NCBI RefSeq assembly: GCF_030013595.1 | Contig: NZ_CP122768.1 | DNA length: 64,000 nucleotides | From: Escherichia coli | Lineage (GTDB): Bacteria; Pseudomonadota; Gammaproteobacteria; Enterobacterales; Enterobacteriaceae | Reading direction: 5' to 3' (one strand) | In this document: positions 1,120 through 54,058 of the stretch, piece after piece | Position numbering within the stretch: the stretch's first letter is position 1 | Layout: every line of letters begins with the position of its first letter | Position numbers and translations under genes: made by a program | The notes under the pieces: model-generated | Told to the model about the DNA's origin: nothing | Databases searched by the model: none | The model's input: only the letters and a program-made list of their open reading frames with translations

Positions 1120-1120
1120 A

Positions 1121-2657: not shown

Positions 2658-2999
2658 TCAGACGCCTGTCATAGCGGCGTATTTCTCCGTCTGGTAATGA
2701 ATAAACCAGGTCCGGGTCGCTCTTTTTTTCACTGCTGCTTTCGACATCTTTTTGCGGGCCTTTATCCAGTCCTTACGTGCCTGTTCAGACGGAAATAACC
2801 CGTAGCCGGAGTTGTATAAATCGCCACTGGCAACCAGCTCTCTGGCAAGAACACTCATCAGATACCTTGTCGCACCTGTCTTAGCTTCCAGTTGTCGTAA
2901 CGTCTCGCGCCCACTCTGGTGCACGAGCTCAACAACCTTCCCCTTAATTTTTTCCCGCTCTTCTTGTGTAAATACTTTTGCCATAAGCGCCTCCGGCAA
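2658..2999 (-). CDS. phage hypothetical protein
   Basis: 113-aa ORF directly downstream of and co-directional with the replication-module genes; no recognisable motif. Confidence 0.45.
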   Translation of the reverse strand: MPEALMAKVFTQEEREKIKGKVVELVHQSGRETLRQLEAKTGATRYLMSVLARELVASGDLYNSGYGLFPSEQARKDWIKARKKMSKAAVKKRATRTWFIHYQTEKYAAMTGV

Positions 3000-3770: not shown

Positions 3771-3792
3771 TAAAATTTCCTCCCGGTAAAAA

Positions 3793-4539
3793 TTACTTCT
3801 CAATACCTGGCTGACCAACATTCGGGCGCCAGCTCTCCCAGTTAAAATTCACCCAGCGCCCGCCGTTCATGGTCATGCGGTCCATAATCCGCTCGCCGAG
3901 CAGCGTTTTCATGGCCTCATAGTTCAGGTTTGTCAGCATTCCCACGCTGCGCATCGACGCTGTCCGGCGATCAACAATCTGGTGCAGTACCACCTGCTCG
4001 TTTTTCGTCTCGCGCTGAATGCCAATTTCATCAAGAACCAGCAGATCCACTTCGCACAGTTCCCGCAAAAATTTTTCGCCTGATTGCCCGTCGTCATAGC
4101 TGGCGTGTAGAGCACTCATAACATCAGCCACGGTAACCACAATCACTGTCTGGCCATCTTTCAGCAGGCGATTCCCGATAGCCGCCGCTAAGTGGTTTTT
4201 CCCGGTACCAGGTTTTCCGCTGAATGCGAAATTTGTGCATCCGGTCATCAGTTCATCGGCGATGGATTTCGCCTGGCTCAGCGCGTATCGCTGGTCGTCA
4301 TTCTGCACCTGGTAATTCGCAAACGAGCACTTGCGGTGCAACGGCTGGATGCCGGAGCGATTCAGAATTTTTTCCACCCGCAACTGACGATTCTGGCGGT
4401 TGATCTCCTCGCAACGCTTCTGGCCTTCTGCAAGTTGCCACTCGCGCCACTCGTCCACTGTTCGGTATGGCGCGGTTACATGCTGCGGAGCCAGCTTACG
4501 GATGCGTTCAAGAACACCGCCTGTCGCAATATTTTTCAT
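3793..4539 (-). CDS. ydaV: Rac prophage DnaC/IstB-like replication ATPase (helicase loader)
   Basis: 248 aa; Walker [16 protein letters not shown] and DnaC-like layout; matches remembered YdaV length. Confidence 0.85.
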
Positions 4540-4545
4540 GCTTCG

Positions 4546-5430
4546 TTACCCCCTGAAGCCTGGTGGGATCGCACTGTCCGGAAACGAGACGGTGTTAACC
4601 TGTCGAAGCAACGTCTCAGGCCGAACGCCTTTCGGCGCGAACAAGCCCTGGTATTCATGGGCAATGCTGTGTCTAATCACCTGCTCAGGGGTAAAACCCT
4701 GCTGGCGGAATTTTTCCAGCTCCCGTATCGCCCCGTTAGCGCCCTGCTCCGTTCGAATCGGTTTTCGCAATGCCTGCCTGAATTGAACCCACTCATGCCA
4801 GAGTGTTTCCGGCAACCACTCAGGCAGAGCAACTGACAACGGGTCGAATTTTTTAGTCGCTCGTTTTTGGTGAGGGAGATTTAGAGGGAGATCAGTATTT
4901 ATATCTTCCTCTTCCTCTTCCTCTTCCTCTTCCTCTTCCTCTGGTAACGCTTTTTGATCCGTTTGTGTAACGCTGGCAGCGTTACCTTTTCGTTTCAGTT
5001 CACGTATTTTTGTTACTCGCTCGTTTGTAACCGCCCGTTTTTTTGAGCTTTTTCCGTTATGACGTTCAAAGTTAGGTAGCGAAAGCCCACCGTCATTTTC
5101 GACCAGCCATCCAACCTGAATTAGCGCATCAGCAAAACCAGCCATAAAAGTGATGCGATCTATTGCACTTTTTGTAACGCTGCGAGCGTTACACTCTACG
5201 TTACCGTCTATCATTTGTTGATCCGCCCATACCCAGAAGCGAATGACTTTCCCTAATGCGGCATCTGGATCAATATTCAGAATCTCAGCAAGCCTGAATA
5301 TTTCCGGCTTATCCGGCGTAATAACCTCGAGCTTTATCCAGTTTGAAGCCATATTGTTTTCACCTTGTAACGCTGTGAGCGTTACATTTAACTGATACCG
5401 AACAAAACAGTCCGGCACGATTAATTTCAA
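4546..5430 (-). CDS. ydaU: Rac prophage replication-initiation-like protein with internal poly-Glu tract
   Basis: 294-aa ORF in YdaU position; contains 12 consecutive Glu encoded by a hexanucleotide repeat. Confidence 0.8.
   Translation of the reverse strand: MKLIVPDCFVRYQLNVTLTALQGENNMASNWIKLEVITPDKPEIFRLAEILNIDPDAALGKVIRFWVWADQQMIDGNVECNARSVTKSAIDRITFMAGFADALIQVGWLVENDGGLSLPNFERHNGKSSKKRAVTNERVTKIRELKRKGNAASVTQTDQKALPEEEEEEEEEEEEDINTDLPLNLPHQKRATKKFDPLSVALPEWLPETLWHEWVQFRQALRKPIRTEQGANGAIRELEKFRQQGFTPEQVIRHSIAHEYQGLFAPKGVRPETLLRQVNTVSFPDSAIPPGFRG
4905..4940. repeat. perfect hexanucleotide tandem repeat (CTTCCT)x6 on + strand, encoding poly-Glu in ydaU-like gene
   Basis: Read directly: cttcct repeated six times. 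Confidence 0.9.
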
Positions 5431-5853
5431 TCAATGCACTACAACAGAATCGTCGGACGCTCCACCACCGCTGAAATGTGCTTTCCGGTAAACGGCCTGG
5501 ACTGCATCATCATGCGCATCAATTGCCGTACTCAACGCTTCCTGCGCCGCCAGTAATGCACGGCGTTCCAGGGTATCGAAGATGCAGAGTCGATGACGCA
5601 GCTCCCGCGGAAGGATTGCCAGAATTGCTGGGATCAGCTTCTGAATTTTTTCCCTTTGCGCTTCCGTTTCACCTTTTAACCAACGATGATAGATATTCTG
5701 CTGATTGTTCCAGTCCCTGCCTGGTACCAAGGGCAATTCGCCGTCCCCCTGGCGCAGATATTCTTCAGTAATTGCATTGGCTACCCATGCCTGCCCTTTT
5801 TCAGCGGCCAGGGCTAACAGCACTGATTCAATGTGCTCATGCCTGATTTTCAT
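5431..5853 (-). CDS. ydaT: Rac prophage protein YdaT-like
   Basis: 140-aa ORF in conserved position and of matching length to K-12 YdaT. Confidence 0.8.
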   Translation of the reverse strand: MKIRHEHIESVLLALAAEKGQAWVANAITEEYLRQGDGELPLVPGRDWNNQQNIYHRWLKGETEAQREKIQKLIPAILAILPRELRHRLCIFDTLERRALLAAQEALSTAIDAHDDAVQAVYRKAHFSGGGASDDSVVVH

Positions 5854-6139
5854 GAATCAACTCCTGTGCATTTTGTGTGTTAGCTTTACATCCAACAGGT
5901 AAACCATCGGTCGGATTCGGGTAGATATCAGGCCGAAGTTCATGAGGTGTAACCTCGAAATTCGTAGCCTCCGCGATACGCAATACCTTTTCGGGGCTTA
6001 ACTGACTACGGCCAGTAGCTACGAGGCTAATCATTGATTGCGAACAACCAGCGAGTGCAGCCAAACAAGACTGTCGTACACGATTTTTTTTCAAATATTC
6101 ATCTAATGTCATAAGGGTCACCTTAGTAATGCCTGTCAA
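5837..6139 (-). CDS. ydaS: Cro-like HTH regulator YdaS-like
   Basis: 100-aa ORF divergent from racR; HTH segment QSCLAALAGCSQSMISLVATG; start may be the internal Met (MTLDEYL). Confidence 0.8.
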   Translation of the reverse strand: MTGITKVTLMTLDEYLKKNRVRQSCLAALAGCSQSMISLVATGRSQLSPEKVLRIAEATNFEVTPHELRPDIYPNPTDGLPVGCKANTQNAQELIHENQA

Positions 6140-6216
6140 AATATTAACTATATTAATTTAAATGATCAATACCTATATCAGTTTGAGATTATGAGTTGTG
6201 TTCATAAGATGGTGGT

Positions 6217-6681
6217 ATGAGAAGAAAACGCGAAGAAATCGCATCGCCAGAAGCTACGCAGCGTCTGCGCGCAGTCTGGGATGCCAAAAAAAGAGAGCTC
6301 AAACTGACTCAGGAGCTTGCTGCTGAGCTAATGGGCTTTGAGACTCAATCCACAGTTAGCCACTATCTCAACGGAAAGGCTCCACTAAACACTGATGCAG
6401 CATTAAAATTCGCTGTATTACTAAGAGTTAAGCCTGAAGAGTTGAGGCCTGATTTAGCTGATCTGATGAATTACGTCCGTTCCTCAGGAACTTATGACGA
6501 AAGTTTCGAAGGAGAAGGTTGGCGGATGGTTAACAAGCAACAAGCTGATTTACTGGATCTTTTTGAAATCCTACCCGAATCAGAAAAAGCAAAACTAATC
6601 GAAAGGCTTAAAGGTCAGAATGAACTCTACAAAGAAGCGTTTGAAAAGATGCTGGCAGCTCAGAAACGCATGAAGAAATAG
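6217..6681 (+). CDS. racR: Rac prophage repressor (CI-like HTH)
   Basis: 154-aa ORF with HTH (TQELAAELMGFETQSTVSHYLNG), divergent from ydaS. Confidence 0.8.
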   Translation: MRRKREEIASPEATQRLRAVWDAKKRELKLTQELAAELMGFETQSTVSHYLNGKAPLNTDAALKFAVLLRVKPEELRPDLADLMNYVRSSGTYDESFEGEGWRMVNKQQADLLDLFEILPESEKAKLIERLKGQNELYKEAFEKMLAAQKRMKK

Positions 6682-6701
6682 CTCCCGTAACCTCGTAACT
6701 A

Positions 6702-6727
6702 AACCGCCATTTTTGGCGGTTTTTTTG
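6702..6727 (+). terminator. rho-independent terminator after racR
   Basis: Hairpin ccgcca-tttt-tggcgg followed by a T-run. Confidence 0.65.
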
Positions 6728-6916
6728 TCCCCTCTGCACCCTCACCTTTCTTTTTTATCAAAAAAAACACTAAAAATTTCATTACGATAGTACATTTTTA
6801 TCAATAAAATGCATATTTGTGTTGATCACTTATATGAATATAACTAATATTATTGCAGAAGCAGCACGGCGCTGTAGGTTTTAGTTCCGCCACCCGGCGT
6901 TAAAGGGAGAGATAAA

Positions 6917-7051
6917 ATGGTGCATTACGAAGTAGTTCAGTATTTGATGGATTGTTACGGCATCACTTACAGCCAGGCTGTACAGGCTCTACGCAGCAAC
7001 GACTGGGATCTCTGGCAGGCAGAAGCCTCTATCCGCAACAACAAGATGTGA
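6917..7051 (+). CDS. ydaG: Rac prophage small protein YdaG
   Basis: 44-aa ORF MVHYEVVQYLMDCYGITYSQAVQALRSNDWDLWQAEASIRNNKM, near-identical to remembered K-12 YdaG; GGGAGAG Shine-Dalgarno. Confidence 0.7.
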   Translation: MVHYEVVQYLMDCYGITYSQAVQALRSNDWDLWQAEASIRNNKM

Positions 7052-7062
7052 GGGTTTCCAAA

Positions 7063-7215
7063 ATGCAAAAAATCGACCTCGGCAACAACGAATCCCTAGT
7101 GTGTGGCGTGTTCCCCAACCAGGATGGAACGTTCACCGCCATGACTTATACCAAAAGCAAGACATTCAAAACTGAAACGGGCGCACGTCGCTGGCTTGCC
7201 AGAAATACTTGCTGA
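7063..7215 (+). CDS. ydaF: Rac prophage small protein YdaF
   Basis: 50-aa ORF MQKIDLGNNESLVCGVFPNQDGTFTAMTYTKSKTFKTE..., matches remembered YdaF. Confidence 0.7.
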   Translation: MQKIDLGNNESLVCGVFPNQDGTFTAMTYTKSKTFKTETGARRWLARNTC

Positions 7216-7462
7216 TCCATTATTTGGATTAATTCAATATTCTCGCTGTAGGGGTATAGCCGAGGCCACCAAAGCCCGGAGGTGGTGAAATAAAACCGGG
7301 CGCAACACGAAGGCGCATTTCCGATATCCATAAAGAGTCGGTTTTGTCTGTTAAATTTAAATGGTGGGAGTGCTCCTCCGGTTGTAAATAACGACATTGC
7401 TGTGTGTAGTCTTGGCGGCATCAGTTTTTTCTTGAAGTTCGGCTGATGTCCGCCCTTTTTAA

Positions 7463-7630
7463 AGTGAATTTTGTGATGCGGTGAATGCGGCTCAGCGCAC
7501 GCGGAACAGTTAAAAAAGTGATCGGTACTCTGTATTTGTTTTATGGAGTTGGTTTCCCTGTATTCCGGCGTTAATTGTTAACTGGTTAACGTCACCTGGA
7601 GGCACCAGGCACCGCATCACAAAATTCACT
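7463..7630. repeat. 21-bp perfect inverted repeat (AGTGAATTTTGTGATGCGGTG at 7463..7483, reverse complement at 7610..7630) flanking a 126-bp spacer in a non-coding gap
   Basis: Read directly from sequence. Confidence 0.85.
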
Positions 7631-7652
7631 TAGTAACCAAGAAGAGAATTAT

Positions 7653-7925
7653 ATGCAAGAGATAAGTTTTGAAATAACAGCAAAAGATGTACAGGTTAAG
7701 CCCGATTACAATCAAAAATTATGTATTGAAGTCAATGGCGTGAAGTTATCAGACCTGATTGATTCAGTTGAAGATAACGACGCTATTATTGAAATGGTTG
7801 GAGCCGAAGAAATAGCAGAATACTTTTCAACAGAGGGGCGTCTTCATGAGCTTCTGGAAAAATTTTCATATCAGGATATCGCTACATTTCTGGAAATTAA
7901 TGGTTATAAAGTTACCGAGGAATAA
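7653..7925 (+). CDS. hypothetical small strongly acidic protein (prophage early-region gene)
   Basis: 90-aa ORF; about 21 Asp/Glu versus about 8 basic residues by my count; not recognisable as kilR or sieB. Confidence 0.5.
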   Translation: MQEISFEITAKDVQVKPDYNQKLCIEVNGVKLSDLIDSVEDNDAIIEMVGAEEIAEYFSTEGRLHELLEKFSYQDIATFLEINGYKVTEE

Positions 7926-7943
7926 AGTAGCTCAGGTGGCGTT

Positions 7944-8153
7944 ATGGAACGTAATCATCTAACAGCTATCAGTGCCGCACAGAGTAAATTCGCCATCGCT
8001 GTATTTTTACAGGATGAAGAAATGTTTGAGCAGGCCATTATTCAGTTTGCAATTGCGACCGGGAGTAAAATAAATGAACACTTTGTTCGCTCTTGTCATG
8101 ACCGTTTTTCTGACATCAGGCGAAACTCAGGATGTTGTTACCGGAATTTATAA
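7944..8153 (+). CDS. hypothetical small protein (uncertain; overlaps next ORF in another frame)
   Basis: 69-aa ORF with AGGTGG Shine-Dalgarno 6 nt upstream; overlaps 8074..8310 by 80 nt. Confidence 0.3.
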   Translation: MERNHLTAISAAQSKFAIAVFLQDEEMFEQAIIQFAIATGSKINEHFVRSCHDRFSDIRRNSGCCYRNL

Positions 8154-8310
8154 CTCCGAATCTGAATGCAAGGCCGCAGCTATTGAGCAAAAAGTAGCTG
8201 GTGAATGTTTCCCTGTTGAGAAATTTATCCGGCCTGTAGATGAAGAAATTCCCGCAGGCCTCACAGGAGAAAATCATGAAAATAAAATGTGGTTACCACC
8301 TTTGCAATAA
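8074..8310 (+). CDS. hypothetical small protein with hydrophobic N-terminus (kilR-position gene, identity not confirmed)
   Basis: 78-aa ORF with GGGAG Shine-Dalgarno; N-terminal MNTLFALVMTVFLTSG is signal-peptide or TM-like. Confidence 0.4.
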   Translation: MNTLFALVMTVFLTSGETQDVVTGIYNSESECKAAAIEQKVAGECFPVEKFIRPVDEEIPAGLTGENHENKMWLPPLQ

Positions 8311-8440
8311 AGACGTTGAAGAAAGCAAAACCATTAAAAGACCACTTCATTTCATGCGTGGAGTTATCCCAACGACGGAAATGAAAAAATATTGTAGTGA
8401 AAATTGTGCCGAAAAAGACCAGATGGCACACGAACTTTAA
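8276..8440 (+). CDS. ydaE: Rac prophage small Cys-rich protein YdaE
   Basis: 54-aa ORF MKIKCGYHLCNKDVEESKTIKRPLHFMRGVIPTTEMKKYCSENCAEKDQMAHEL with AGGAGAAAA Shine-Dalgarno. Confidence 0.7.
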   Translation: MKIKCGYHLCNKDVEESKTIKRPLHFMRGVIPTTEMKKYCSENCAEKDQMAHEL

Positions 8441-8514
8441 TTAACTGACTATTCGAAACTGAATTTATGCCAGAAATGGCAGGGATTCGCTCAACCTTAA
8501 TTAAGGAGAAAAAC

Positions 8515-8790
8515 ATGATTACCAATTATGAAACCACTGTTGTAACTACCGATGACATTGTTCACGAGGTGAATCTGGAAGGAAAGCGCATTGGCTACGT
8601 AATTAAAACAGAAAATAAAGAAACCCCATTCACTGTGGTTGATATCGATGGTCCATCAGGCAACGTAAAAACACTTGATGAAGGTGTCACAAAAATGAGC
8701 CTGGTTCACATCGGAAAGAATCTGCCCGCAGAAAAAAAAGCCGGATTTCTGGCAACTCTGATCGCAATGAAATTAAACGGTGAAATCTGA
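8515..8790 (+). CDS. racC: Rac prophage protein RacC
   Basis: 91 aa from MITNYETTVV...; matches remembered RacC. Confidence 0.8.
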   Translation: MITNYETTVVTTDDIVHEVNLEGKRIGYVIKTENKETPFTVVDIDGPSGNVKTLDEGVTKMSLVHIGKNLPAEKKAGFLATLIAMKLNGEI

Positions 8791-8889
8791 AAAAAAGAAA
8801 GCCTGCACTGTGTGCAGGCCTGAGTGAAGAACCTGGGACATTTATTCATCACTCGCAGTAATTTTAATCTGAGTTGAGGTTAAAAAACA

Positions 8890-11541
8890 ATGAGCACAAA
8901 ACCACTCTTCCTTTTACGGAAAGCGAAAAAATCATCCGGTGAGCCTGACGTCGTCCTGTGGGCAAGCGACGATTTTGAATCAACCTGTGCCACTCTGGAC
9001 TACCTGATCGTTAAGTCAGGTAAAAAACTGAGCAACTATTTTAAAGCTATTGCAACTAATTTTCCTGTCGTTAATGACCTGCCCCCTGAAGGTGAGATCG
9101 ATTTTACCTGGAGTGAACGCTATCAACTCAGCAAAGACTCCATGACATGGGAACTAAAACCGGGAGCAGCGCCAGACGACGTTCACCACCAGGATAATGC
9201 TCAAGAAACCAACGAACTGGCGGGAGGCCAGGAAGAAAACGCGCAGGCAGACGCCCACGAGGATTGCCAGGATTGCGAAGTCTCTGTAGCCACTTTGCGG
9301 TTCACACAGCGTCTTCTGCACATTTTTACGTATGCAGCCGGGGATCGGAAATACCTGCATCATGCCACCCGTGAACAACGCAAACACATTACTGCTCTTG
9401 AGATGGATCAGGAAAACAGCTATGTCCAGAATCTGCTGTTGGCCATACGCAGCATGGCAGAACCGACAACTCTGGATAATGCCGCCCTGCTCCGCCTGAC
9501 TGATGCAATTAAGGCAGTGTTCTCTATCACGAAAAAACATCAGCCCTATGAATTTAAGAATTTCATTTCAGCCTGGCTGGATACCGAACACATTGATCGC
9601 GGTCTTCTGACAAAAGAATGGCGAAAAGGAAATCGTGTTTCACGCATCACGCGCACGGCTTCCGGCGCTAATGCTGGCGGCGGAAACCTCACCGATCGCG
9701 GCGAAGGTTTCGTTCACGATCTGACGTCACTGGCGCGCGACGTAGCCACTGGCGTACTGGCTCGTTCAATGGACGTGGACATTTATAACCTTCATCCGGC
9801 ACACGCTAAACGTGTCGAGGAAATTATCGCTGAAAATAAACCACCCTTTTCTGTTTTCCGCGACAAATTCATCACCATGCCTGGTGGGCTGGATTATTCC
9901 CGCGCCATCGTGGTTGCGTCCGTAAAAGAAGCACCAATTGGGATCGAGGTTATCCCCGCACACGTCACCGAATATCTTAACAAAGTACTGACTGAAACTG
10001 ATCATGCCAACCCTGATCCAGAAATCGTGGATATTGCCTGCGGTCGTTCCTCTGCCCCGATGCCGCAGCGTGTAACAGAAGAAGAAAAACAGGATGATGA
10101 AGAAAAACTGCAACCATCTTGCGCAATGGCAGATGAACAGGCAACGGCTGAAACAGTGGAACCGGATGCAACTGAACATCATCAGGACACGCAGTCGCTG
10201 GATGCTCAGTCACAGGTAAATTCTGTTGATGCGAAATATCAGAAACTGCGGGCAGAACTCCATGAAGCCCGGAAAAACATTCCGCCCAAAAATCCTGTCG
10301 ATGCAGACAAATTACTGGCTGCCTCTCGCGGAGAATTTGTTGAAGGGATTAGCGACCCGAATGATCCGAAATGGGTTAAGGGGATCCAGACCCGCGATTC
10401 TGTGTACCAGAACCAGCCAGAAACGGAAAAAACCAGCCCGGATGTGAAACAACCTGAGCCAGTAGTGCAACAGGAACCGGAAATAGTCTGCAATGCCTGC
10501 GGTCAGACTGGCGGGGATAACTGCCCTGACTGTGGTGCAGTGATGGGCGACGCAACATACCAGGAAACATTCGGTGAAGAGAATCAGGTTGAAGCTAAGG
10601 AAAAAGATCCGGAGGAAATGGAAGGCGCTGAACATCCGCACAATGAGAATGCTGGCAGCGATCCGCATCGCGATTGCAGTGATGAAACTGGCGAAGTCGC
10701 AGATCCCGTAATCGTAGAAGACATAGAGCCAGGTATTTATTACGGAATTTCGAATGAGAATTACCACGCGGGTCCCGGTGTCAGTAAGTCTCAGCTCGAT
10801 GACATTGCTGATACTCCGGCACTGTATTTGTGGCGTAAAAATGCCCCCGTGGACACTACAAAGACAAAAACGCTCGATTTAGGAACCGCTTTCCACTGCC
10901 GGGTACTTGAACCGGAAGAATTCAGTAACCGCTTTATCGTAGCACCTGAATTTAACCGCCGTACAAACGCCGGAAAAGAAGAAGAGAAAGCGTTTCTGAT
11001 GGAATGCGCAAGCACAGGAAAAACGGTTATCACTGCGGAAGAAGGCCGGAAAATTGAACTCATGTATCAAAGCGTTATGGCTTTGCCGCTGGGGCAATGG
11101 CTTGTTGAAAGCGCCGGACACGCTGAATCATCAATTTACTGGGAAGATCCGGAAACAGGAATTTTGTGTCGGTGCCGTCCGGACAAAATTATTCCTGAAT
11201 TTCACTGGATCATGGACGTGAAAACCACAGCGGATATTCAACGATTCAAAACGACTTATTACGACTACCGCTATCACGTTCAGGATGCATTCTACAGTGA
11301 CGGTTATGAAGCACAGTTTGGTGTGCAGCCAACTTTCGTTTTTCTGGTTGCCAGCACAACTGTTGAATGCGGACGTTATCCGGTTGAGATTTTCATGATG
11401 GGCGAAGAAGCAAAACTGGCAGGCCAGCAGGAATATCACCGCAATCTGCGGACCCTGGCTGACTGCCTAAATACCGATGAATGGCCAGCTATTAAGACGT
11501 TATCACTGCCCCGCTGGGCTAAGGAGTATGCAAATGACTAA
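8890..11541 (+). CDS. recE: exodeoxyribonuclease VIII (RecE), full length
   Basis: 883-aa ORF; N- and C-terminal regions match remembered K-12 RecE ([22 protein letters not shown]... and ...[13 protein letters not shown]); Cys cluster [16 protein letters not shown]. Confidence 0.9.
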
Positions 11542-12367
11542 GCAACCACCTATCGCAAAAGCCGATCTGCAAAAAACTCAGGGAAACCGTGCACCAGCAG
11601 CAGTTAACGATAAGGATGTGCTGTGCGTGATTAACAGCCCGGCAATGAAAGCGCAACTGGCAGCAGCTCTGCCACGTCACATGACAGCGGAACGCATGAT
11701 CCGCATTGCTACAACAGAAATCCGTAAAGTACCGGAACTAAGAAACTGTGACTCGACGAGTTTTATCGGTGCCATCGTACAGTGTTCACAGCTCGGACTT
11801 GAGCCAGGTAGCGCCCTCGGTCATGCATATCTGCTACCGTTCGGCAACGGAAAAGCAAAAAACGGTAAGAAGAACGTACAGCTGATCATCGGTTATCGCG
11901 GCATGATCGACCTTGCCCGTCGATCAGGTCAAATCATCAGTCTGTCAGCTCGTGTTGTCCGTGAATGTGATGAATTCAGCTATGAACTTGGTCTTGATGA
12001 AAAACTGGTTCATCGTCCCGGTGAAAACGAAGATGCCCCTATAACCCATGTCTATGCTGTTGCAAAACTGAAAGACGGAGGAGTGCAGTTTGAAGTCATG
12101 ACCCGCAAACAAGTAGAAAAAGTTCGCGACACACACAGCAAGGCGGCAAAAAACGCAGCGTCAAAAGGGGCGTCGTCCATCTGGGATGAACACTTTGAAG
12201 ACATGGCCAAAAAGACAGTGATACGAAAACTGTTCAAGTATCTGCCGGTATCTATTGAAATCCAGCGTGCAGTATCGATGGATGGAAAAGAGGTGGAAAC
12301 AATTAATCCAGACGACATATCGGTTATAGCCGGGGAATACAGTGTAATCGATAATCCAGAAGAATAA
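11534..12367 (+). CDS. recT: RecT single-strand annealing protein
   Basis: Start [23 protein letters not shown] overlapping recE stop by 8 nt; strong match to remembered RecT. Confidence 0.92.
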
Positions 12368-18555: not shown

Positions 18556-19749
18556 ATGATTACGCACAACTTCAATACCCTGGACTTACTCACCAGTCCT
18601 GTCTGGATCGTTTCGCCCTTTGAGGAACAGTTAATTTATGCCAATAGCGCGGCGCGACTGTTGATGCAAGACCTCACGTTTAGTCAGCTACGAACCGGTC
18701 CCTATTCCGTCTCCTCACAAAAAGAACTGCCAAAATACCTCTCCGATCTGCAAAACCAACACGATATTATCGAAATCCTCACCGTTCAACGTAAAGAAGA
18801 GGAAACAGCATTAAGCTGTCGGCTTGTTTTGCGAGAGCTTACAGAAGCAGAACCGGTGATTATTTTCGAAGGTATCGAAGCACCGGCAACGCTGGGTTTA
18901 AAAGCCAGTCGCTCGGCAAATTATCAGCGCAAAAAACAAGGTTTTTATGCGCGCTTTTTTCTGACTAACTCTGCACCAATGTTGTTGATTGACCCCTCAC
19001 GAGATGGCCAAATCGTCGATGCTAACCTCGCCGCGCTCAATTTCTATGGCTATAACCATGAAACGATGTGCCAGAAACATACCTGGGAAATAAATATGCT
19101 CGGGCGACGCGTCATGCCTATCATGCATGAAATTTCGCATTTACCCGGTGGCCATAAGCCTTTGAATTTTGTTCATAAACTGGCGGATGGTTCGACTCGT
19201 CATGTGCAGACCTATGCCGGTCCGATTGAAATTTATGGCGACAAGCTCATGTTATGTATTGTGCATGATATTACTGAGCAAAAACGGCTGGAGGAGCAGC
19301 TGGAACATGCTGCCCACCATGACGCGATGACCGGATTACTGAATCGGCGACAGTTTTATCACATTACCGAGCCAGGCCAAATGCAGCACCTCGCCATCGC
19401 TCAGGATTACAGCTTATTGCTCATCGACACAGATCGTTTTAAACACATTAACGATCTCTATGGGCATTCTAAAGGTGATGAGGTGTTATGCACCCTCGCC
19501 CGCACTCTCGAAAGTTGCGCTCGCAAAGGCGATTTGGTGTTTCGTTGGGGAGGCGAAGAGTTTGTCTTATTGCTACCAAGAACCCCACTGGATACCGCGC
19601 TTTCGCTGGCTGAAACTATCCGCGTAAGCGTGGCAAAAGTGAGTATTTCGGGCTTACCACGCTTTACCGTCAGCATTGGTGTGGCGCATCACGAAGGAAA
19701 TGAAAGCATCGATGAACTGTTTAAACGCGTTGATGATGCTTTGTACTGA
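18556..19749 (+). pseudogene. dgcM: diguanylate cyclase DgcM (YdaM), 3' end interrupted by IS10; translation stops at the first IS10 codon, last 13 codons displaced
   Basis: GGDEF protein ending ...ELFKRVDDALY then TGA inside the IS10 terminus; the expected tail RAKNDGRNRVLAA is encoded in frame on the far side of the IS. Confidence 0.85.
19737..19745. repeat. IS10 target-site duplication, left copy (TGCTTTGTA)
   Basis: Identical 9-mer directly flanks both IS10 ends. Confidence 0.9.
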
Positions 19750-21074
19750 TGAATCCCCTAATGATTTTGGTAAAAATCATTAAGTTAAGGTGGATACACA
19801 TCTTGTCATATGATCAAATGGTTTCGCGAAAAATCAATAATCAGACAACAAGATGTGCGAACTCGATATTTTACACGACTCTCTTTACCAATTCTGCCCC
19901 GAATTACACTTAAAACGACTCAACAGCTTAACGTTGGCTTGCCACGCATTACTTGACTGTAAAACTCTCACTCTTACCGAACTTGGCCGTAACCTGCCAA
20001 CCAAAGCGAGAACAAAACATAACATCAAACGAATCGACCGATTGTTAGGTAATCGTCACCTCCACAAAGAGCGACTCGCTGTATACCGTTGGCATGCTAG
20101 CTTTATCTGTTCGGGCAATACGATGCCCATTGTACTTGTTGACTGGTCTGATATTCGTGAGCAAAAACGACTTATGGTATTGCGAGCTTCAGTCGCACTA
20201 CACGGTCGTTCTGTTACTCTTTATGAGAAAGCGTTCCCGCTTTCAGAGCAATGTTCAAAGAAAGCTCATGACCAATTTCTAGCCGACCTTGCGAGCATTC
20301 TACCGAGTAACACCACACCGCTCATTGTCAGTGATGCTGGCTTTAAAGTGCCATGGTATAAATCCGTTGAGAAGCTGGGTTGGTACTGGTTAAGTCGAGT
20401 AAGAGGAAAAGTACAATATGCAGACCTAGGAGCGGAAAACTGGAAACCTATCAGCAACTTACATGATATGTCATCTAGTCACTCAAAGACTTTAGGCTAT
20501 AAGAGGCTGACTAAAAGCAATCCAATCTCATGCCAAATTCTATTGTATAAATCTCGCTCTAAAGGCCGAAAAAATCAGCGCTCGACACGGACTCATTGTC
20601 ACCACCCGTCACCTAAAATCTACTCAGCGTCGGCAAAGGAGCCATGGGTTCTAGCAACTAACTTACCTGTTGAAATTCGAACACCCAAACAACTTGTTAA
20701 TATCTATTCGAAGCGAATGCAGATTGAAGAAACCTTCCGAGACTTGAAAAGTCCTGCCTACGGACTAGGCCTACGCCATAGCCGAACGAGCAGCTCAGAG
20801 CGTTTTGATATCATGCTGCTAATCGCCCTGATGCTTCAACTAACATGTTGGCTTGCGGGCGTTCATGCTCAGAAACAAGGTTGGGACAAGCACTTCCAGG
20901 CTAACACAGTCAGAAATCGAAACGTACTCTCAACAGTTCGCTTAGGCATGGAAGTTTTGCGGCATTCTGGCTACACAATAACAAGGGAAGACTTACTCGT
21001 GGCTGCAACCCTACTAGCTCAAAATTTATTCACACATGGTTACGCTTTGGGGAAATTATGAGGGGATCTCTCAG
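19746..21074 (+). mobile_element. IS10 insertion sequence, complete (1329 bp), outside end towards dgcM
   Basis: Begins CTGATGAATCCCCTAATGATTTTGGTAAAAATCATTAAG and ends ...GGGGAAATTATGAGGGGATCTCTCAG; length and ends match remembered IS10. Confidence 0.95.
19853..21061 (+). CDS. IS10 transposase
   Basis: 402-aa ORF MCELDILHDSLYQFCPELHLKRLNSL...HGYALGKL matching remembered IS10 transposase. Confidence 0.95.
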   Translation: MCELDILHDSLYQFCPELHLKRLNSLTLACHALLDCKTLTLTELGRNLPTKARTKHNIKRIDRLLGNRHLHKERLAVYRWHASFICSGNTMPIVLVDWSDIREQKRLMVLRASVALHGRSVTLYEKAFPLSEQCSKKAHDQFLADLASILPSNTTPLIVSDAGFKVPWYKSVEKLGWYWLSRVRGKVQYADLGAENWKPISNLHDMSSSHSKTLGYKRLTKSNPISCQILLYKSRSKGRKNQRSTRTHCHHPSPKIYSASAKEPWVLATNLPVEIRTPKQLVNIYSKRMQIEETFRDLKSPAYGLGLRHSRTSSSERFDIMLLIALMLQLTCWLAGVHAQKQGWDKHFQANTVRNRNVLSTVRLGMEVLRHSGYTITREDLLVAATLLAQNLFTHGYALGKL

Positions 21075-21710: not shown

Positions 21711-21904
21711 GTAACCTCCTATGCACCTTCACACGTCGTGATTCAGACGGGTTAATTGTTCATACTTACTGCATCGTTCCCTTCACAGATTGAAACAATA
21801 CTCTACTTCATACCTGTGAGTATCTGCGCAGGCGGGGCATTTTATACTAGCCTGTTAGCAGTATCGAACAGTTTAGCCCGAGTTTAATTCAGCACAGGCT
21901 CCGA

Positions 21905-23419
21905 TCAGGATGATTTATTCATAGCAGGAACCAACAAAAATGCGATAAATAACAGACCACTGATTAGCAGAAAGGTATCCGAAAATGCCATAGTTTGCGC
22001 CTCCCTCAGCATCAATTGACTCAATAATTTGGTTGAAGCCAGTATTTCCGATGTCTGGTCACTTCCACTGCGATTAAAAAACAAAGCACTTCTGGAAATG
22101 AAGTCATTCACCGTATGGGGAACAGAAACCATTTTTTCACCCATTCTCGAAAAATGAAAATTAGTTCGATTATTGAGAATAGAGCCACACAGGGCAATAC
22201 CAATCGCGCCCCCAAGATTACGTGTTAAATTAAATACACCAGAGGCTAACTTCAGCCGTTCTTTTGGAATTCCCCCCAGCGTTAATGTTACGATGGGGGC
22301 CATCGCAAACTGCTGCGAAATCCCTCTAATTGCCTGTGGAAACAGTAACTCCTGCCATCCCCATTCGTGGGTTATAGGGGTAAAAAGATACATTGAAAAC
22401 ACAAATCCACCCAGCCCCGCCATCAACAGCCATCGCAGATTTATTTTTTTACTTAACCAGAAGTAAAAGGGAACAGAAAATAACTGGAAAATACCTGTTG
22501 TGCAAACGGCAAAACCTATCTCTTCGGCATTTAATCCGCGAACCTGCCCCAAAAACACAGGTATTAAATATACAGTAGAGAATATCCCAACCCCTCCAGA
22601 AAAAGAAAAAAAGCATCCCAGCGTGAAATTTTTATCCTTAAAAGCATGAAGATCCATTATCGGATTGGATATTGTAAGTGTACGCGCAGCAAATAAAATA
22701 AAACTCACCAATGCCAGAACTGATGTCAGCAAAATAGTATTATCATCCAGCCATCCCCAGCGCGCTCCTTCTTCAAGGGTATATTCCAGACATCCCAGTG
22801 TCATGGCCAACAGGATAATACTCGGATAATCAGCAACTTTCAGTAAAGAGAGATCAGGTTTATCAAAATTAACCAGAAAAGGAATACTCAAAACTAAATA
22901 TATGCCAGGTAATATATTGATATAAAATAGCCATCGCCAGTCGAGGTTATCAGTGATCCAGCCCCCCAGAGTTGGCCCTAGCGTCGGTGACAGTGAGGCC
23001 AGCGCACTGACTACCGCAGCAGCCACCCCCAACTCTTTACCCTGGTAATAAATAAACGCCGTCGTGAAAACTAAAGGGATCATGGATGCGCCAGCCGCTC
23101 CCTGTAAAGCACGAAACAAAATCATGATCTGAATATTCCATGCAAGTCCACACGCGATACTCATTAAAGTAAATATTCCCGCGGATAGAGTAAAAAGCCA
23201 ACGAGTGGAAAATACCCGTGACAGCCACCCAGAGAGCGGAATAACAATAATCTCAGCAATTAAATAGCTGGTCTGAAGCCAGGCCATTTCGTCTTTACCT
23301 GCGGACAGACCACCACCTATTTCATTTAGGGATGACGATACAATTTGAATATCAAGCTGAGCAATAAATAATCCCATACACATACTGGCGAAAGCAATAT
23401 GTTTACGCATAGACATCAT
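21905..23419 (-). CDS. MFS drug-efflux transporter, EmrB/QacA-like (14-TMS type)
   Basis: 504-aa highly hydrophobic ORF with typical MFS features; start overlaps the stop of the upstream fusion-protein gene. Confidence 0.8.
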   Translation of the reverse strand: MMSMRKHIAFASMCMGLFIAQLDIQIVSSSLNEIGGGLSAGKDEMAWLQTSYLIAEIIVIPLSGWLSRVFSTRWLFTLSAGIFTLMSIACGLAWNIQIMILFRALQGAAGASMIPLVFTTAFIYYQGKELGVAAAVVSALASLSPTLGPTLGGWITDNLDWRWLFYINILPGIYLVLSIPFLVNFDKPDLSLLKVADYPSIILLAMTLGCLEYTLEEGARWGWLDDNTILLTSVLALVSFILFAARTLTISNPIMDLHAFKDKNFTLGCFFSFSGGVGIFSTVYLIPVFLGQVRGLNAEEIGFAVCTTGIFQLFSVPFYFWLSKKINLRWLLMAGLGGFVFSMYLFTPITHEWGWQELLFPQAIRGISQQFAMAPIVTLTLGGIPKERLKLASGVFNLTRNLGGAIGIALCGSILNNRTNFHFSRMGEKMVSVPHTVNDFISRSALFFNRSGSDQTSEILASTKLLSQLMLREAQTMAFSDTFLLISGLLFIAFLLVPAMNKSS

Positions 23420-24447
23420 CTCTCATCAACACTGACGGTGACGGACAGTCCCGGGCGAAGAAGTTGCTTTAATTCCTTTGCGTCGTCAAATGCAATCCGT
23501 ACCGGGACTCGCTGAACAATTTTGGTGAAATTGCCAGTGGCATTTTCTATCGGAATCAAGCTGAAACTGGCTCCTGTCGCTGGGGAAAGGCTTTCAATGT
23601 GACCGTGAAACACTTCCCCTTTGAGAATATCAGCACGGATCTCAGCCTTCATTCCTGGCTTCATTCCCGCTATTTGGTTTTCTTTATAATTTGCATCAAC
23701 CCACAACTCACTGACTGGTACAAGTGAAACTAACGATGTGCCACCTTCCACCCAACTGCCTGTATGGGCGCTGCGGTTTGCGACAATGCCATCAATCGGC
23801 GCACGAACAAGGGTATATTCCAGATCCAGTAGTGCCTGAGTCAAAGCGGCCTGAACTTCTTCGATACTCGCACGTACGTTTTCTTCCTGAGCAGATAAAA
23901 CTGCCAGCCGTTGCTTCTCCACCAGGAAATCGTTCGCGGCTTTGCGCTCCTTTGCTGCGACCTGCTGGTAGTCAAACCTGGCATTATCAATAATTTGTTG
24001 CGATATTGCCGCTGATTGTGCGAGTTTTTCATAACGTTCAGTATCTCGCAGGCGCTTTTGCTCCTCATGTTTTACTGCCTGCCATGTTTCACTGGCACTT
24101 TGAATTATCGACTGCTGCATCGCAATAGTGGCTTGAATGCTTTCGAGATTGGCTTTGCTACTTTTTATTTTTGCCTCAAGCCTGGCGACATTTGCACGAT
24201 AATCCCGATCATCGAGACGCAGGATAATATCGCCTTTTTTTACGCTCTGATTATCGCGCACCTCTATAGCAGAAATATAACCAGAAACTTTACTTGCCAC
24301 CGTGGTGATATTACCACCAATGTAAGCATCATCCGTCGTCTGTATAAATCTTCCTGTGCTTACCCACCAGATAAAAAAGACAACGCCAGCTAAAATAATA
24401 CCGATCGCTACCACCCCAATAAGCTGTTTTTTAGAAATTATCATCAC
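23416..24447 (-). CDS. membrane fusion protein, EmrA/HlyD family
   Basis: 343-aa ORF with N-terminal TM anchor, coiled-coil region and C-terminal beta domain. Confidence 0.8.
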   Translation of the reverse strand: MMIISKKQLIGVVAIGIILAGVVFFIWWVSTGRFIQTTDDAYIGGNITTVASKVSGYISAIEVRDNQSVKKGDIILRLDDRDYRANVARLEAKIKSSKANLESIQATIAMQQSIIQSASETWQAVKHEEQKRLRDTERYEKLAQSAAISQQIIDNARFDYQQVAAKERKAANDFLVEKQRLAVLSAQEENVRASIEEVQAALTQALLDLEYTLVRAPIDGIVANRSAHTGSWVEGGTSLVSLVPVSELWVDANYKENQIAGMKPGMKAEIRADILKGEVFHGHIESLSPATGASFSLIPIENATGNFTKIVQRVPVRIAFDDAKELKQLLRPGLSVTVSVDER

Positions 24448-24540
24448 TCTTTACACCGTATATATCCGGAAACTTGCATTCGTCATATTTAAAATTTAAC
24501 ATGGCTTATTTGATGATTTCTGACAAAATACCTACTGTAA

Positions 24541-25356
24541 ATGACAATCACACTGCAACCCAAAGCATCACCAGGGCATCACATTATCGGACTGGATTCG
24601 GAACATCTGAATGGAGGTACAGTTCCCTGGCATAAACATCTCTATGCCCAGTTGCTTTACCCGGCTGAAGGAGTCGTTCGTGTATGGGCTGGAGAAAGCG
24701 TCTGGCTAGTGCATGCCAGCAGCGCGCTTTGGCTGCCCCCACAAATGCCGCATAAGTTTGTTGCGACAGGCAACGTACTTTTAAAAACCGTACTGGTTTC
24801 AGAAGCGGAAAGTGAAACGCTGGGAAAAGTTTGCTTCATGACGGGTATTTCACCCCTGTTAAGGGAATTACTAATTGCAATTAACCAACTTCCACCGTCG
24901 CAAAGTACCACAGATAAACAACAGTTACGTTTTTCAGCCCTCGAGACACTGATACTTCAGGAAATAAAAATGGGGGTGAAAATGTCACTTGAACTCCCTT
25001 GGCCAAATGATGAGCGGCTACAGCAGCTTTGTGAGAATTTGCTAAACAACCAAGGGTATCTGCCAACATTGGATAATCTAGCGGATAAAATTAACGTCAG
25101 TAGCCGTACACTCATGCGCTTATTTGTTAAAGAGACGGGATTAACATTTCGCCACTGGGTTCAGCAAATGCACGTTATTTCTGCAGTGACGCTTCTTGAT
25201 GATGGATATTCGTTGACCAAAATTGCCCATCGTCTGGGCTATGCCTCAGCTGAATCGTTCGGCAATATGTTTAAGCGTCGAACGGGCTACTCGCCCGGTA
25301 AATTTACTCGTCGATTAACGATGCATGATTATGCAATCACAAGACAAATGATTTAA
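24541..25356 (+). CDS. AraC-family transcriptional regulator (cupin-like N-terminus, HTH C-terminus)
   Basis: 271-aa ORF, divergent from the efflux genes; C-terminal AraC-type HTH region. Confidence 0.75.
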   Translation: MTITLQPKASPGHHIIGLDSEHLNGGTVPWHKHLYAQLLYPAEGVVRVWAGESVWLVHASSALWLPPQMPHKFVATGNVLLKTVLVSEAESETLGKVCFMTGISPLLRELLIAINQLPPSQSTTDKQQLRFSALETLILQEIKMGVKMSLELPWPNDERLQQLCENLLNNQGYLPTLDNLADKINVSSRTLMRLFVKETGLTFRHWVQQMHVISAVTLLDDGYSLTKIAHRLGYASAESFGNMFKRRTGYSPGKFTRRLTMHDYAITRQMI

Positions 25357-31460: not shown

Positions 31461-31621
31461 ACATTAAACAATTTGTGCCAGCTTGTTCACACTTTTATGT
31501 AAAGTTACCCTTAACAACTTAAGGGTTTTCAAATAGATAGACATATATTTACATCTAATATCGGAATTCTCTGCTGTTAAGGTTTGCTTAGACTTACTTG
31601 CTCCCTAAAAAGATGTTAAAA

Positions 31622-31635
31622 TTGACAAATATCAA
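31622..31635 (+). promoter_or_regulatory. FNR-binding site in fnr promoter (TTGAC-N4-ATCAA)
   Basis: Near-consensus FNR dyad about 20 bp upstream of the fnr start codon. Confidence 0.7.
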
Positions 31636-31654
31636 TTACGGCTTGAGCAGACCT

Positions 31655-32407
31655 ATGATCCCGGAAAAGCGAATTATACGGCGCATTCAGTCTGGCGGTT
31701 GTGCTATCCATTGCCAGGATTGCAGCATCAGCCAGCTTTGCATCCCGTTCACACTCAACGAACATGAGCTTGATCAGCTTGATAATATCATTGAGCGGAA
31801 GAAGCCTATTCAGAAAGGCCAGACGCTGTTTAAGGCTGGTGATGAACTTAAATCGCTTTATGCCATCCGCTCCGGTACGATTAAAAGTTATACCATCACT
31901 GAGCAAGGCGACGAGCAAATCACTGGTTTCCATTTAGCAGGCGACCTGGTGGGATTTGACGCTATCGGCAGCGGCCATCACCCGAGCTTCGCGCAGGCGC
32001 TGGAAACCTCGATGGTATGTGAAATCCCGTTCGAAACGCTGGACGATTTGTCCGGTAAAATGCCGAATCTGCGTCAGCAGATGATGCGTCTGATGAGCGG
32101 TGAAATCAAAGGCGATCAGGACATGATCCTGCTGTTGTCGAAGAAAAATGCCGAGGAACGTCTGGCTGCATTCATCTACAACCTGTCCCGTCGTTTTGCC
32201 CAACGCGGCTTCTCCCCTCGTGAATTCCGCCTGACGATGACTCGTGGCGATATCGGTAACTATCTGGGCCTGACGGTAGAAACCATCAGCCGTCTGCTGG
32301 GTCGCTTCCAGAAAAGCGGTATGCTGGCAGTCAAAGGTAAATACATCACCATCGAAAATAACGATGCGCTGGCCCAGCTTGCTGGTCATACGCGTAACGT
32401 TGCCTGA
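31655..32407 (+). CDS. fnr: fumarate/nitrate reduction regulator FNR
   Basis: 250 aa from [29 protein letters not shown]... Confidence 0.95.
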
Positions 32408-32558
32408 TTTTTCCGCATAACTCACTATCCTTCTGTCATATCATTAAATTTTTCTGATTTATTGATCTGGCAGAAGGTTCATCACTGTTTCATTCACCAG
32501 ATATGGGTTAATCTTTTAATTACAAACTGCGTTGACAGTTGTTGTAAGGAGACCCTGT

Positions 32559-33509
32559 ATGGCTATGTATCAGAACATGCTCGTTGTTATCGATCCTAAC
32601 CAGGACGACCAACCAGCATTGCGGCGAGCTGTTTATTTACATCAACGGATTGGTGGCAAAATTAAAGCCTTTTTGCCGATCTATGACTTCTCATACGAAA
32701 TGACCACCCTGCTCTCTCCGGACGAACGTACCGCTATGCGTCAGGGCGTCATCAGCCAGCGTACAGCCTGGATCCACGAGCAGGCAAAATATTATCTCAA
32801 TGCTGGCGTTCCCATTGAAATTAAAGTGGTCTGGCATAACCGCCCTTTTGAAGCCATCATTCAGGAAGTGATCAGCGGCGGGCACGATTTGGTGCTAAAA
32901 ATGGCGCACCAACATGACCGTCTGGAAGCGGTGATTTTTACGCCAACGGACTGGCATCTGTTACGCAAATGCCCAAGCCCGGTGTGGATGGTGAAAGACC
33001 AGCCGTGGCCGGAAGGGGGTAAGGCGCTGGTGGCGGTGAATCTCGCCAGTGAAGAGCCGTACCATAATGCGCTCAATGAAAAACTGGTCAAAGAGACGAT
33101 CGAACTGGCGGAACAAGTCAACCATACCGAAGTTCATCTGGTTGGCGCTTATCCGGTAACGCCAATTAATATCGCGATTGAACTGCCGGAATTTGATCCG
33201 AGCGTTTATAACGATGCCATTCGTGGGCAACATTTGCTGGCAATGAAAGCCCTGCGGCAGAAATTCGGCATTAATGAAAACATGACGCACGTAGAAAAAG
33301 GTCTGCCAGAAGAGGTGATTCCTGATTTGGCGGAGCATTTACAGGCGGGGATTGTGGTTCTGGGCACGGTCGGACGCACCGGTATTTCAGCGGCATTCCT
33401 CGGCAACACGGCGGAACAGGTGATTGATCATCTTCGCTGCGACCTGCTGGTCATTAAACCTGACCAGTATCAGACACCCGTTGAACTGGATGACGAAGAA
33501 GACGATTAA
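32559..33509 (+). CDS. uspE: universal stress protein E (tandem Usp domains)
   Basis: 316 aa from [17 protein letters not shown]... Confidence 0.92.
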
Positions 33510-33530
33510 CGACTCTTCAATAACTGACAA

Positions 33531-33556
33531 GGCCCGAGTTATCGGGCCTATTTTTT
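33531..33556. terminator. bidirectional rho-independent terminator between convergent uspE and ynaJ
   Basis: Hairpin ggcccgag-tt-atcgggcc followed by a T-run. Confidence 0.6.
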
Positions 33557-33558
33557 AC

Positions 33559-33816
33559 TTACTGCTCTTCGCCGCCAAGAAAATAAATTCCCAACGGGAT
33601 TGCCAGCAACACAGTAAAGACCAGGCTATAAACAAAAATCATCGATGACTGAATCACATACATTGATGTCGTCCACTCAGACAGCGGAATATTGTACTGT
33701 TCGATAACGCCGCCGATGGTCGCGCGAGTCACAACCGACGCCGCAATAATGAAAACCGCCAACAAACCAAAGAGAAATTTCTTCCCTTTCGCTGACTTCA
33801 GTTTCGCCATAATCAT
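33559..33816 (-). CDS. ynaJ: small inner-membrane protein YnaJ
   Basis: 85-aa ORF with two hydrophobic segments. Confidence 0.85.
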   Translation of the reverse strand: MIMAKLKSAKGKKFLFGLLAVFIIAASVVTRATIGGVIEQYNIPLSEWTTSMYVIQSSMIFVYSLVFTVLLAIPLGIYFLGGEEQ

Positions 33817-34059
33817 GATGTAATCCTTGTGCAGACAAATTTCTTGTTACCTAAACGTAACAATACCATGACATTTTACCGTTGTCTGCTCTGAAAACCT
33901 CACCTCTTAGCTGGATTTACAATCAACGCATTGATTAGTTAGCTAATGTTGCTACTTCCTTCCCTGACTATTGATGATCTGAATGAATTGTCGCGGTAAA
34001 ATAGCCCCGCCAGGGGTTTCCGGCATGACGACAATTATCTGGAGGAGCCTGATAAAACA

Positions 34060-35091
34060 ATGATCGCTGAACTGTTTACAAATAATGCGCTTAATCTGGT
34101 CATTATTTTCGGTAGCTGCGCAGCATTGATTCTGATGAGCTTTTGGTTTCGCCGCGGAAATCGTAAAAGAAAAGGTTTTTTATTCCATGCGGTGCAATTT
34201 TTAATCTACACCATAATTATCAGTGCTGTTGGTAGCATCATTAATTATGTTATAGAAAACTATAAACTCAAATTTATCACCCCAGGCGTTATCGATTTTA
34301 TCTGTACGTCCCTGATTGCGGTTATTCTGACGATTAAGCTATTTCTGCTGATTAATCAGTTTGAAAAACAGCAGATTAAAAAAGGTCGCGATATCACCAG
34401 TGCGCGGATTATGTCGCGTATCATCAAAATCACCATTATTGTGGTGCTTGTTCTGCTTTATGGCGAACATTTCGGCATGAGCCTTTCTGGCTTGTTGACC
34501 TTTGGTGGTATTGGTGGTCTGGCTGTCGGTATGGCCGGTAAAGATATTCTGAGTAACTTCTTTTCCGGGATTATGCTCTATTTCGACCGTCCTTTTAGTA
34601 TTGGCGACTGGATCCGTTCACCGGACAGAAATATCGAAGGTACAGTAGCGGAAATTGGCTGGCGAATTACCAAGATTACGACTTTTGATAATCGTCCGTT
34701 GTACGTACCGAACTCGCTGTTTTCGTCAATCAGCGTAGAAAACCCAGGACGAATGACCAACCGGCGCATTACCACGACCATTGGTTTACGTTATGAGGAT
34801 GCGGCAAAAGTGGGCGTTATTGTCGAAGCCGTACGTGAGATGCTGAAAAACCACCCGGCCATTGACCAGCGACAAACCTTACTGGTTTATTTCAACCAGT
34901 TTGCTGACTCCTCATTGAATATTATGGTTTATTGCTTTACCAAAACCACGGTATGGGCTGAATGGCTTGCTGCACAGCAAGACGTTTATTTGAAGATTAT
35001 CGATATTGTACAGTCACACGGCGCGGACTTTGCCTTCCCCAGCCAGACGCTGTATATGGATAACATTACACCGCCGGACCAGGGTCGCTAA
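34060..35091 (+). CDS. ynaI: MscS-family mechanosensitive channel YnaI
   Basis: 343-aa ORF with N-terminal TM helices and MscS-like C-terminal region. Confidence 0.9.
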
Positions 35092-39119: not shown

Positions 39120-39758
39120 ATGAAAAATGTACTGATTCTTGGTGCTGGCGGTCAGATAGCCCGCCATGTGATTAATCAACTGGCAGATAAACAAACCATT
39201 AAACAAACTTTATTTGCCCGTCAGCCAGCAAAAATCCACAAACCCTATCCCACTAATAGCAAGATTATTATGGGGGATGTACTGAATCATGCAGCACTGA
39301 AGCAGGCCATGCAGGGACAGGATGTTGTGTATGCCAACCTTACGGGGGAAGATTTAGATATTCAGGCAAATTCAGTGATCGCTGCGATGAAAGCCGGTGA
39401 TGTTAAACGTCTGATCTTTGTTCTTTCCCTCGGTATTTATGATGAAGTTCCAGGAAAATTTGGCGAATGGAATAATGCAGTTATTGGTGAGCCCCTAAAA
39501 CCATTCCGCAGGGCTGCGGATGCAATTGAGGCTTCTGGACTGGAATATACAATTCTTCGCCCTGCCTGGCTGACTGATGAAGATATTATTGATTATGAGC
39601 TTACCTCACGCAATGAACCATTCAAAGGTACGATCGTATCACGTAAGAGTGTCGCTGCATTAATTACAGATATCATCGATAAACCTGAGAAACACATTGG
39701 TGAGAATATAGGCATCAATCAACCCGGGACTGATGGTGATAAGCCATTCTTCATGTAA
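39120..39758 (+). CDS. NAD(P)-binding Rossmann-fold protein (ymjC-position gene)
   Basis: 212-aa ORF with N-terminal GAGGQIA dinucleotide-binding motif. Confidence 0.7.
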   Translation: MKNVLILGAGGQIARHVINQLADKQTIKQTLFARQPAKIHKPYPTNSKIIMGDVLNHAALKQAMQGQDVVYANLTGEDLDIQANSVIAAMKAGDVKRLIFVLSLGIYDEVPGKFGEWNNAVIGEPLKPFRRAADAIEASGLEYTILRPAWLTDEDIIDYELTSRNEPFKGTIVSRKSVAALITDIIDKPEKHIGENIGINQPGTDGDKPFFM

Positions 39759-39923
39759 ATCAATTATATAGCTACCATCGTACTGTACTATGTGCAGTAC
39801 GATTTATTAAACTTATTAAGGTGAACTGATCAATTAGATGCGATTAACATGTGTAGAACCAGTAAGAATAAAATACGCCATGTATATAACATTACGACAA
39901 TTCTAATATCTGCACATCAATGA

Positions 39924-46530: not shown

Positions 46531-46648
46531 TGCTGTCCTGTGCCAGAAAGCTGTAGAAAGGATTAGATACTGGAGATAATAATGTGGGTTAATTTTGATT
46601 TATCAAATGAATAAGCGGCGTTGTTTACACCGCTCAATAAGTAATTTG

Positions 46649-53909: not shown

Positions 53910-54058
53910 TATGACTCCTGTTTCACGTCTATCAGATATATGCAGTTTGTGAACGTCAGGGCGCAGAGATCCCCGGGCCGTATGCCCGTTTATTTCTGGC
54001 GACATTCTTTATAGATTGCCGGGCGCATTGCGCTTACCCGGCTTACAGAACAAAAAGA

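Follow-up and report, generated by a model that had tools for sequence, protein, structure and literature searches.

The divergent gene pair ynaJ and ynaI raises the question of whether an IS5 element was lost from one lineage of Escherichia coli or gained by another. In the window analyzed here, a stretch of 64,000 nucleotides from an E. coli genome (NZ_CP122768.1), the open reading frame list places ynaJ on the minus strand at 33559..33816 (85 aa, a DUF2534 small membrane protein) and ynaI on the plus strand at 34060..35091 (343 aa, a low-conductance mechanosensitive channel of the MscS family). The facing ends of the two reading frames, at 33816 and 34060, leave a gap of exactly 243 bp, as a preliminary description of this DNA had stated. 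This divergent spacer (33817..34059) is uninterrupted and has a G+C content of 41.6%. The same description had placed an IS5 copy (insH) between the two genes in K-12 MG1655 and regarded its absence here as a small strain marker, consistent with other non-MG1655 features of the window. According to the open reading frame list, fnr lies within 31598..32407, uspE within 32532..33509 and mppA on the minus strand, giving the neighbourhood fnr-uspE-ynaJ-ynaI-mppA, which is reversed in orientation with respect to MG1655. In protein comparisons YnaJ of the window is 100% identical to MG1655 YnaJ (b1332), and YnaI differs from MG1655 YnaI (b1330) solely by D340E, so that both proteins are orthologs of their K-12 counterparts. 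YnaI matched NCBIfam MscS models with scores below the cut-offs, and an NCBIfam model search with YnaJ gave no match. In the closest complete genome, that of the pig isolate HCP5S3_I2 (NZ_CM149870.1), RefSeq annotates both genes, again 243 bp apart, and names YnaJ a DUF2534 family protein.

The MG1655 sequence (NC_000913.3) bears out the presence of this element. The feature 'insertion sequence:IS5F' is annotated at 1396044..1397238 (1,195 bp, with insH4/b1331), between ynaI (b1330, end 1395922) and ynaJ (b1332, start 1397365). In the alignment to MG1655 that had been proposed as a check, run with BLAST, both flanks aligned and the alignment broke precisely at the two IS5 ends. Positions 1-662 of the reverse-complemented window sequence align up to MG1655 position 1396043 and positions 659-1301 from 1397239 onward, both flanks at 99.1-99.2% identity, and the two pieces overlap by the 4 bp CTAA. 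In MG1655 the junctions are ...AGCTAA/GGAAGGTGCG (IS5) CGCACCTTCC/CTAACTAATC, whereas the window reads ...AGCTAACTAATC... across the same point with the target in one copy; the empty-site junction sequence is AACATTAGCTAACTAATCAATGCG. Insertion of IS5 duplicates a 4-bp YTAR target. CTAA and CTAG flanks of IS5 have been noted (PMC11677980). Two copies of the tetramer surround IS5F in MG1655, with CTAA on each side, but the window contains one, the unoccupied TTAG at 33939..33942 (CTAA on the other strand), and hence no target duplication. After removal of the IS and one CTAA the MG1655 spacer also measures 243 bp and shows a single difference, at position 33877 of the window (T in the window versus C). 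Across the flanks, 11 of 1,305 positions differ from K-12. When the complete 64-kb window was searched by blastn with IS5F, no match was obtained, which shows that IS5 is absent from the gap and from the entire window, and no IS footprint in the form of a residual duplicated TTAG or of IS5 terminal bases is present. An IS5 element, understood as a unit of about 1.2 kb that is bounded by terminal inverted repeats (GGAAGGTGCGAA(C/T)AAG) and encodes a DDE transposase, was found at this site in MG1655 and in the isolates EC21Z-048 and Eco_23-3571. The window harbors no such unit; its flanks are contiguous and collinear, overlap by one copy of the target and enclose zero IS bases.

The distribution of the two states was assessed in 5,426 complete E. 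coli genomes, of which 5,422 matched a 1,301-bp empty-site query. The flanks lie together in 5,055 of the 5,426 genomes, with one place covering at least 80% of the query; as pieces separated by as much as 1,150 bp are joined, this number could hide small insertions, but none occurred in 37 evenly sampled rows of the 5,055, all of which consisted of one gap-free 1,301-bp piece with 98.1-99.9% identity. These sampled rows include E2348/69, an O26 strain and ECOR29. A query composed of MG1655 IS5F and 500-bp flanks, covered to at least 80%, located an IS5-family element in K-12 orientation at the site in 337 of the 5,426 genomes, and a query with the IS5 reversed added one genome occupied in the opposite orientation. 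Another 29 matching genomes fall outside these three classes. The best 60 of the 337 occupied genomes are all 100% identical to MG1655 and belong to laboratory derivatives of K-12 or to K-12-like strains, including MG1655 variants, C600, J53, DH1, MC4100, RR1 and NCM3722. As seen in these best 60 of 337, IS5 at ynaJ/ynaI is a marker of the K-12 lineage. Within E. coli the empty allele is the widespread majority state (5,055 of 5,426 genomes versus 337 plus 1 occupied), and judged by this distribution the empty site is the norm of the species and almost certainly the ancestral state. The designation as a small strain marker is therefore supported with one refinement, namely that K-12 is the unusual strain, since about 93% of the complete E. 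coli genomes are empty at this site. The empty ynaJ-ynaI site is in itself already known, ordinary and a routine strain marker. The result confirms that the window does not originate from a K-12 laboratory strain, a finding of small significance.

Taken together, it is very probable that the spacer of the window represents an ancestral, never-occupied state, and that the K-12 lineage received IS5 into TTAG/CTAA whereas the strain of the window never did. In the K-12 lineage, IS5F (insH4/b1331, 1195 bp) would have transposed into CTAA/TTAG, thereby duplicating the tetramer and increasing the distance between the start codons of ynaJ and ynaI from 243 bp to 1,442 bp. The insertion would never have arrived in the strain of the window, where the divergent control region would have stayed compact. 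The scar-free single TTAG, in combination with the non-K-12 flanks (11 of 1,305 positions) and the wide occurrence of the empty allele, points to a gain of the element in the K-12 ancestor and not to its loss in the window. The single, scar-free TTAG is also exactly what would be predicted if the lineage of the window had once carried IS5 and precise excision had restored the target. Such an excision is nevertheless highly improbable, as the empty state occurs in diverse lineages and in the great majority of genomes, as the occupied state is essentially limited to K-12 derivatives and two single isolates (with the best 60 of 337 occupied genomes examined), and as the differences in the flanks rule out a descent of the window from K-12. 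Precise excision of IS5 is, moreover, rare.

An empty site could also arise in the assembly if IS5 were present in the strain and the repeat had been collapsed or skipped, and short-read assemblies are well known to go wrong at IS copies. However, the IS10 located at 19746-21074 of the same window was assembled correctly, with its ends and its 9-bp target duplication intact. In addition, the clean junction with a single TTAG has the same structure as in thousands of complete genomes, and the closest complete genomes, which share 100.0% identity over 25 kb, are likewise empty. An assembly artefact is thus just as improbable as an excision, and the absence of IS5 from the window is best attributed to a site that was never occupied.

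The K-12 allele of this locus is well documented. BW25113 harbors 11 IS5 copies, one of which is listed as 'ynaI/ynaJ' with 100% wild type, and a BW25113 derivative from which this copy has been removed, ΔIS5(ynaI/ynaJ), was constructed in the same study (PMC11677980). IS5F/insH4 of MG1655, W3110, BW25113 and their derivatives occupies the same locus with the same flanking genes and the same CTAA/TTAG, and the IS-free spacer is one base off that of the window. The window differs from this allele in that it lacks the 1,195-bp element and carries the target singly instead of doubly. In a CGSC stock of W3110 this IS5 and a newly acquired IS5 beside ogt recombine, which results in deletion of ynaJ, uspE and fnr; the gained copy adjoins ogt, across fnr from b1331 (PMC2072959). 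An MG1655 isolate, CGSC6300, carries the lesion fnr-267 (PMC3045373). The segment affected by the K-12 Δ(ynaJ-uspE-fnr) deletions (compare fnr-267) is the same as the ynaJ-uspE-fnr segment at about 31598-33816 of the window, but there it is intact. These deletions require the ynaI/ynaJ IS5 and a second IS5 near ogt (PMC2072959), and the window has neither. Since IS5 is absent from the entire window, this IS5-IS5 route to the loss of fnr is absent as well. The strain of the window would thus be without the copy that recombines with the second IS5 near ogt in K-12 stocks, and more generally, strains in which the site is empty do not have one member of the IS5 pair whose recombination removes fnr in some K-12 stocks.

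The target tetramer of the K-12 insertion has been used more than once. Eco_23-3571, an isolate from an African green monkey of St Kitts that was detected with the reversed-IS5 query, carries a 1,196-bp ISKpn26-like element with 91.4% identity to IS5F at exactly the same tetramer, with CTAA duplicated and in the orientation opposite to K-12. EC21Z-048, a human isolate from Zhejiang, carries a 1,195-bp IS5 with 5 mismatches to IS5F in the same TTAG and in K-12 orientation. This isolate was exposed by a query composed of the window flanks, IS5 and the 660 bp absent from K-12, which was designed to rank occupied alleles of non-K-12 strains first. Its background is not K-12: the flanks differ from MG1655 at 10 of 1,305 positions, and genes absent from K-12 lie beside ycjY. 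The other six of the seven top rows of this search were rejected as occupied sites, because their IS5 is located elsewhere in the 7.8-kb span and non-collinear pieces had been joined. EC21Z-048 and Eco_23-3571 share an identical flank haplotype but harbor different elements in opposite orientations. This indicates that at least three insertion events took place at one tetramer.

Five YTAR tetramers occur in the spacer (33851, 33907, 33935, 33939 and 33943) and 13 within ±500 bp. If the five sites were used uniformly, both additional events would fall on the K-12 tetramer by chance in about 1 in 25 cases, which is suggestive of a local preference but falls short of proof. The target TTAG sits in the run TTAGTTAGCTAA, beside the palindrome AATCAA-CGCA-TTGATT. 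It is an evenly balanced question whether TTAG 33939-33942 is a mild hot spot, that is, a preferred target of IS5-family transposases, and whether the neighbourhood of fnr might be prone to IS5-flanked deletions in natural strains as well. Recurrent IS5 insertion is known upstream of bglGFB, flhDC and fucAO/propanediol (assays in PMC11677980). Like these sites, the ynaJ-ynaI site lies in an intergenic control region that is relatively rich in A+T and offers a YTAR target, and this tetramer was used at least three times; unlike at these sites, recurrence is rare, with three lineages among 5,426 genomes. To our knowledge, no phenotype, selection or activating effect has been described for insertions at ynaJ/ynaI. 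The recurrence of IS5-family elements at an identical tetramer is therefore a minor data point on the target choice of IS5. A separate observation was made in the ogt-fnr spacer, where two unrelated natural isolates harbor an IS5-family element at one point (31584-31591) and in the same orientation, namely an IS5 in S1-ISR-02-A and an ISKpn26 in C 236-04A. The ogt-fnr spacer thus appears to be a second site of recurrent IS5 insertion, at a distance of 2.3 kb from the one between ynaJ and ynaI.

The spacer was also analyzed for its regulatory potential. The promoters of both ynaJ and ynaI are presumably situated inside the 243 bp, although a sigma-70 consensus scan of 33500-34200 did not find a promoter-like site. 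Two hairpins emerged from the same scan, the uspE/ynaJ terminator (33530-33549) and, on the minus strand, one that resembles a terminator (34025-34008). No RNA family was found by Rfam in 33400-34300 at E-values up to 1, and a search of the spacer for repeats of at least 10 bp, a threshold that lies above palindromes with 6-bp arms, yielded none. By eye, two perfect palindromes were recognized. TGTTAC-N6-GTAACA at 33845-33862 is located about 30-45 bp upstream of the ynaJ start codon. AATCAA-N4-TTGATT at 33921-33936, the palindrome with the center CGCA mentioned above, also has 6-bp arms; it shares bases with the first TTAG of the run and stops 2 bp short of the target TTAG. Both may be binding sites of regulators. 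An FNR or CRP site at 33921-33936 was considered and rejected, as the half-sites are reversed (ATCAA-N4-TTGAT instead of TTGAT-N4-ATCAA).

In K-12 the distance from the IS to the start codon, counted from the target tetramer, is 117 bp for ynaI and 122 bp for ynaJ, and the core promoters on the two sides of the element may have remained intact. The insertion could influence the expression of ynaI and ynaJ. The YnaI channel was characterized in K-12 strains, and the IS was not mentioned (PMC3508906). All K-12-based studies on the expression of ynaI and ynaJ are performed with IS5 located 117-122 bp upstream of both start codons, whereas natural strains possess the compact 243-bp divergent control region, and K-12 is the exception at this locus.

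The presence of other non-MG1655 features in the window, which the preliminary description had also put forward, was confirmed: dgcM contains an IS10, an efflux cluster of 3.6 kb and a further 660 bp are additional to MG1655, the 14-kb ycjM-ycjW/ompG block is lacking, and the Rac-like prophage is diverged. The 1,329-bp IS10 at 19746-21074 is inserted at the 3' end of dgcM. This element, with the ends CTGATGAATCCCCTAATG... and ...GGGGATCTCTCAG, carries the open reading frame of an IS4-family transposase (19853-21061) and lies between copies of the 9-bp direct repeat TGCTTTGTA. The reading frame of dgcM now continues into IS10 and comprises 417 aa, versus a gene of 1,233 bp in MG1655; dgcM is intact in MG1655 and in HCP5S3_I2. 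An apparent 9-kb insertion in the closest genome was rejected as a joining artefact, because the first 74 bases of the query, which belong to an IS10 end, had matched an upstream IS10 copy. The 3.6-kb segment at 21720-25321, between smrA and the mcaS/abgR side, is missing from MG1655 but occurs in many other E. coli genomes. Its minus strand encodes a DHA2 MFS efflux permease resembling EmrB (21905-23419) and an adaptor resembling EmrA/HlyD (23416-24447), and its plus strand encodes a regulator of the AraC family (24541-25356).

About 660 bp at 39259-39918 have no counterpart in MG1655. In the window the open reading frame at 39120-39758 is intact and encodes 212 aa, designated an SDR family oxidoreductase by RefSeq in related genomes, whereas the annotation of MG1655 shows just two short genes, ymjC and ymjD, in this region. 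Some other strains harbor an additional alpha/beta-hydrolase gene at about 39103/39120, and two other strains carry IS5 within the SDR gene, at 39354-39357 and 39403-39406. At 46543-46630 the window lacks a 14-kb MG1655 block for sugar utilisation (ycjM-ycjV/ompG/ycjW, 1370022-1384104), and the sequences of the pspE side and the ycjX side are joined across about 87 bp. Positions 1-12200 comprise a Rac-like prophage adjoining ttcA, with patches 88-93% identical to Rac of MG1655 compared to 97-98% for the backbone. HCP5S3_I2 has no prophage at ttcA, which is followed directly by uspF and ompN. Finally, about 120 bp that lie between puuR and puuC of MG1655 (1362518-1362638) are missing from the window at 54010-54013.
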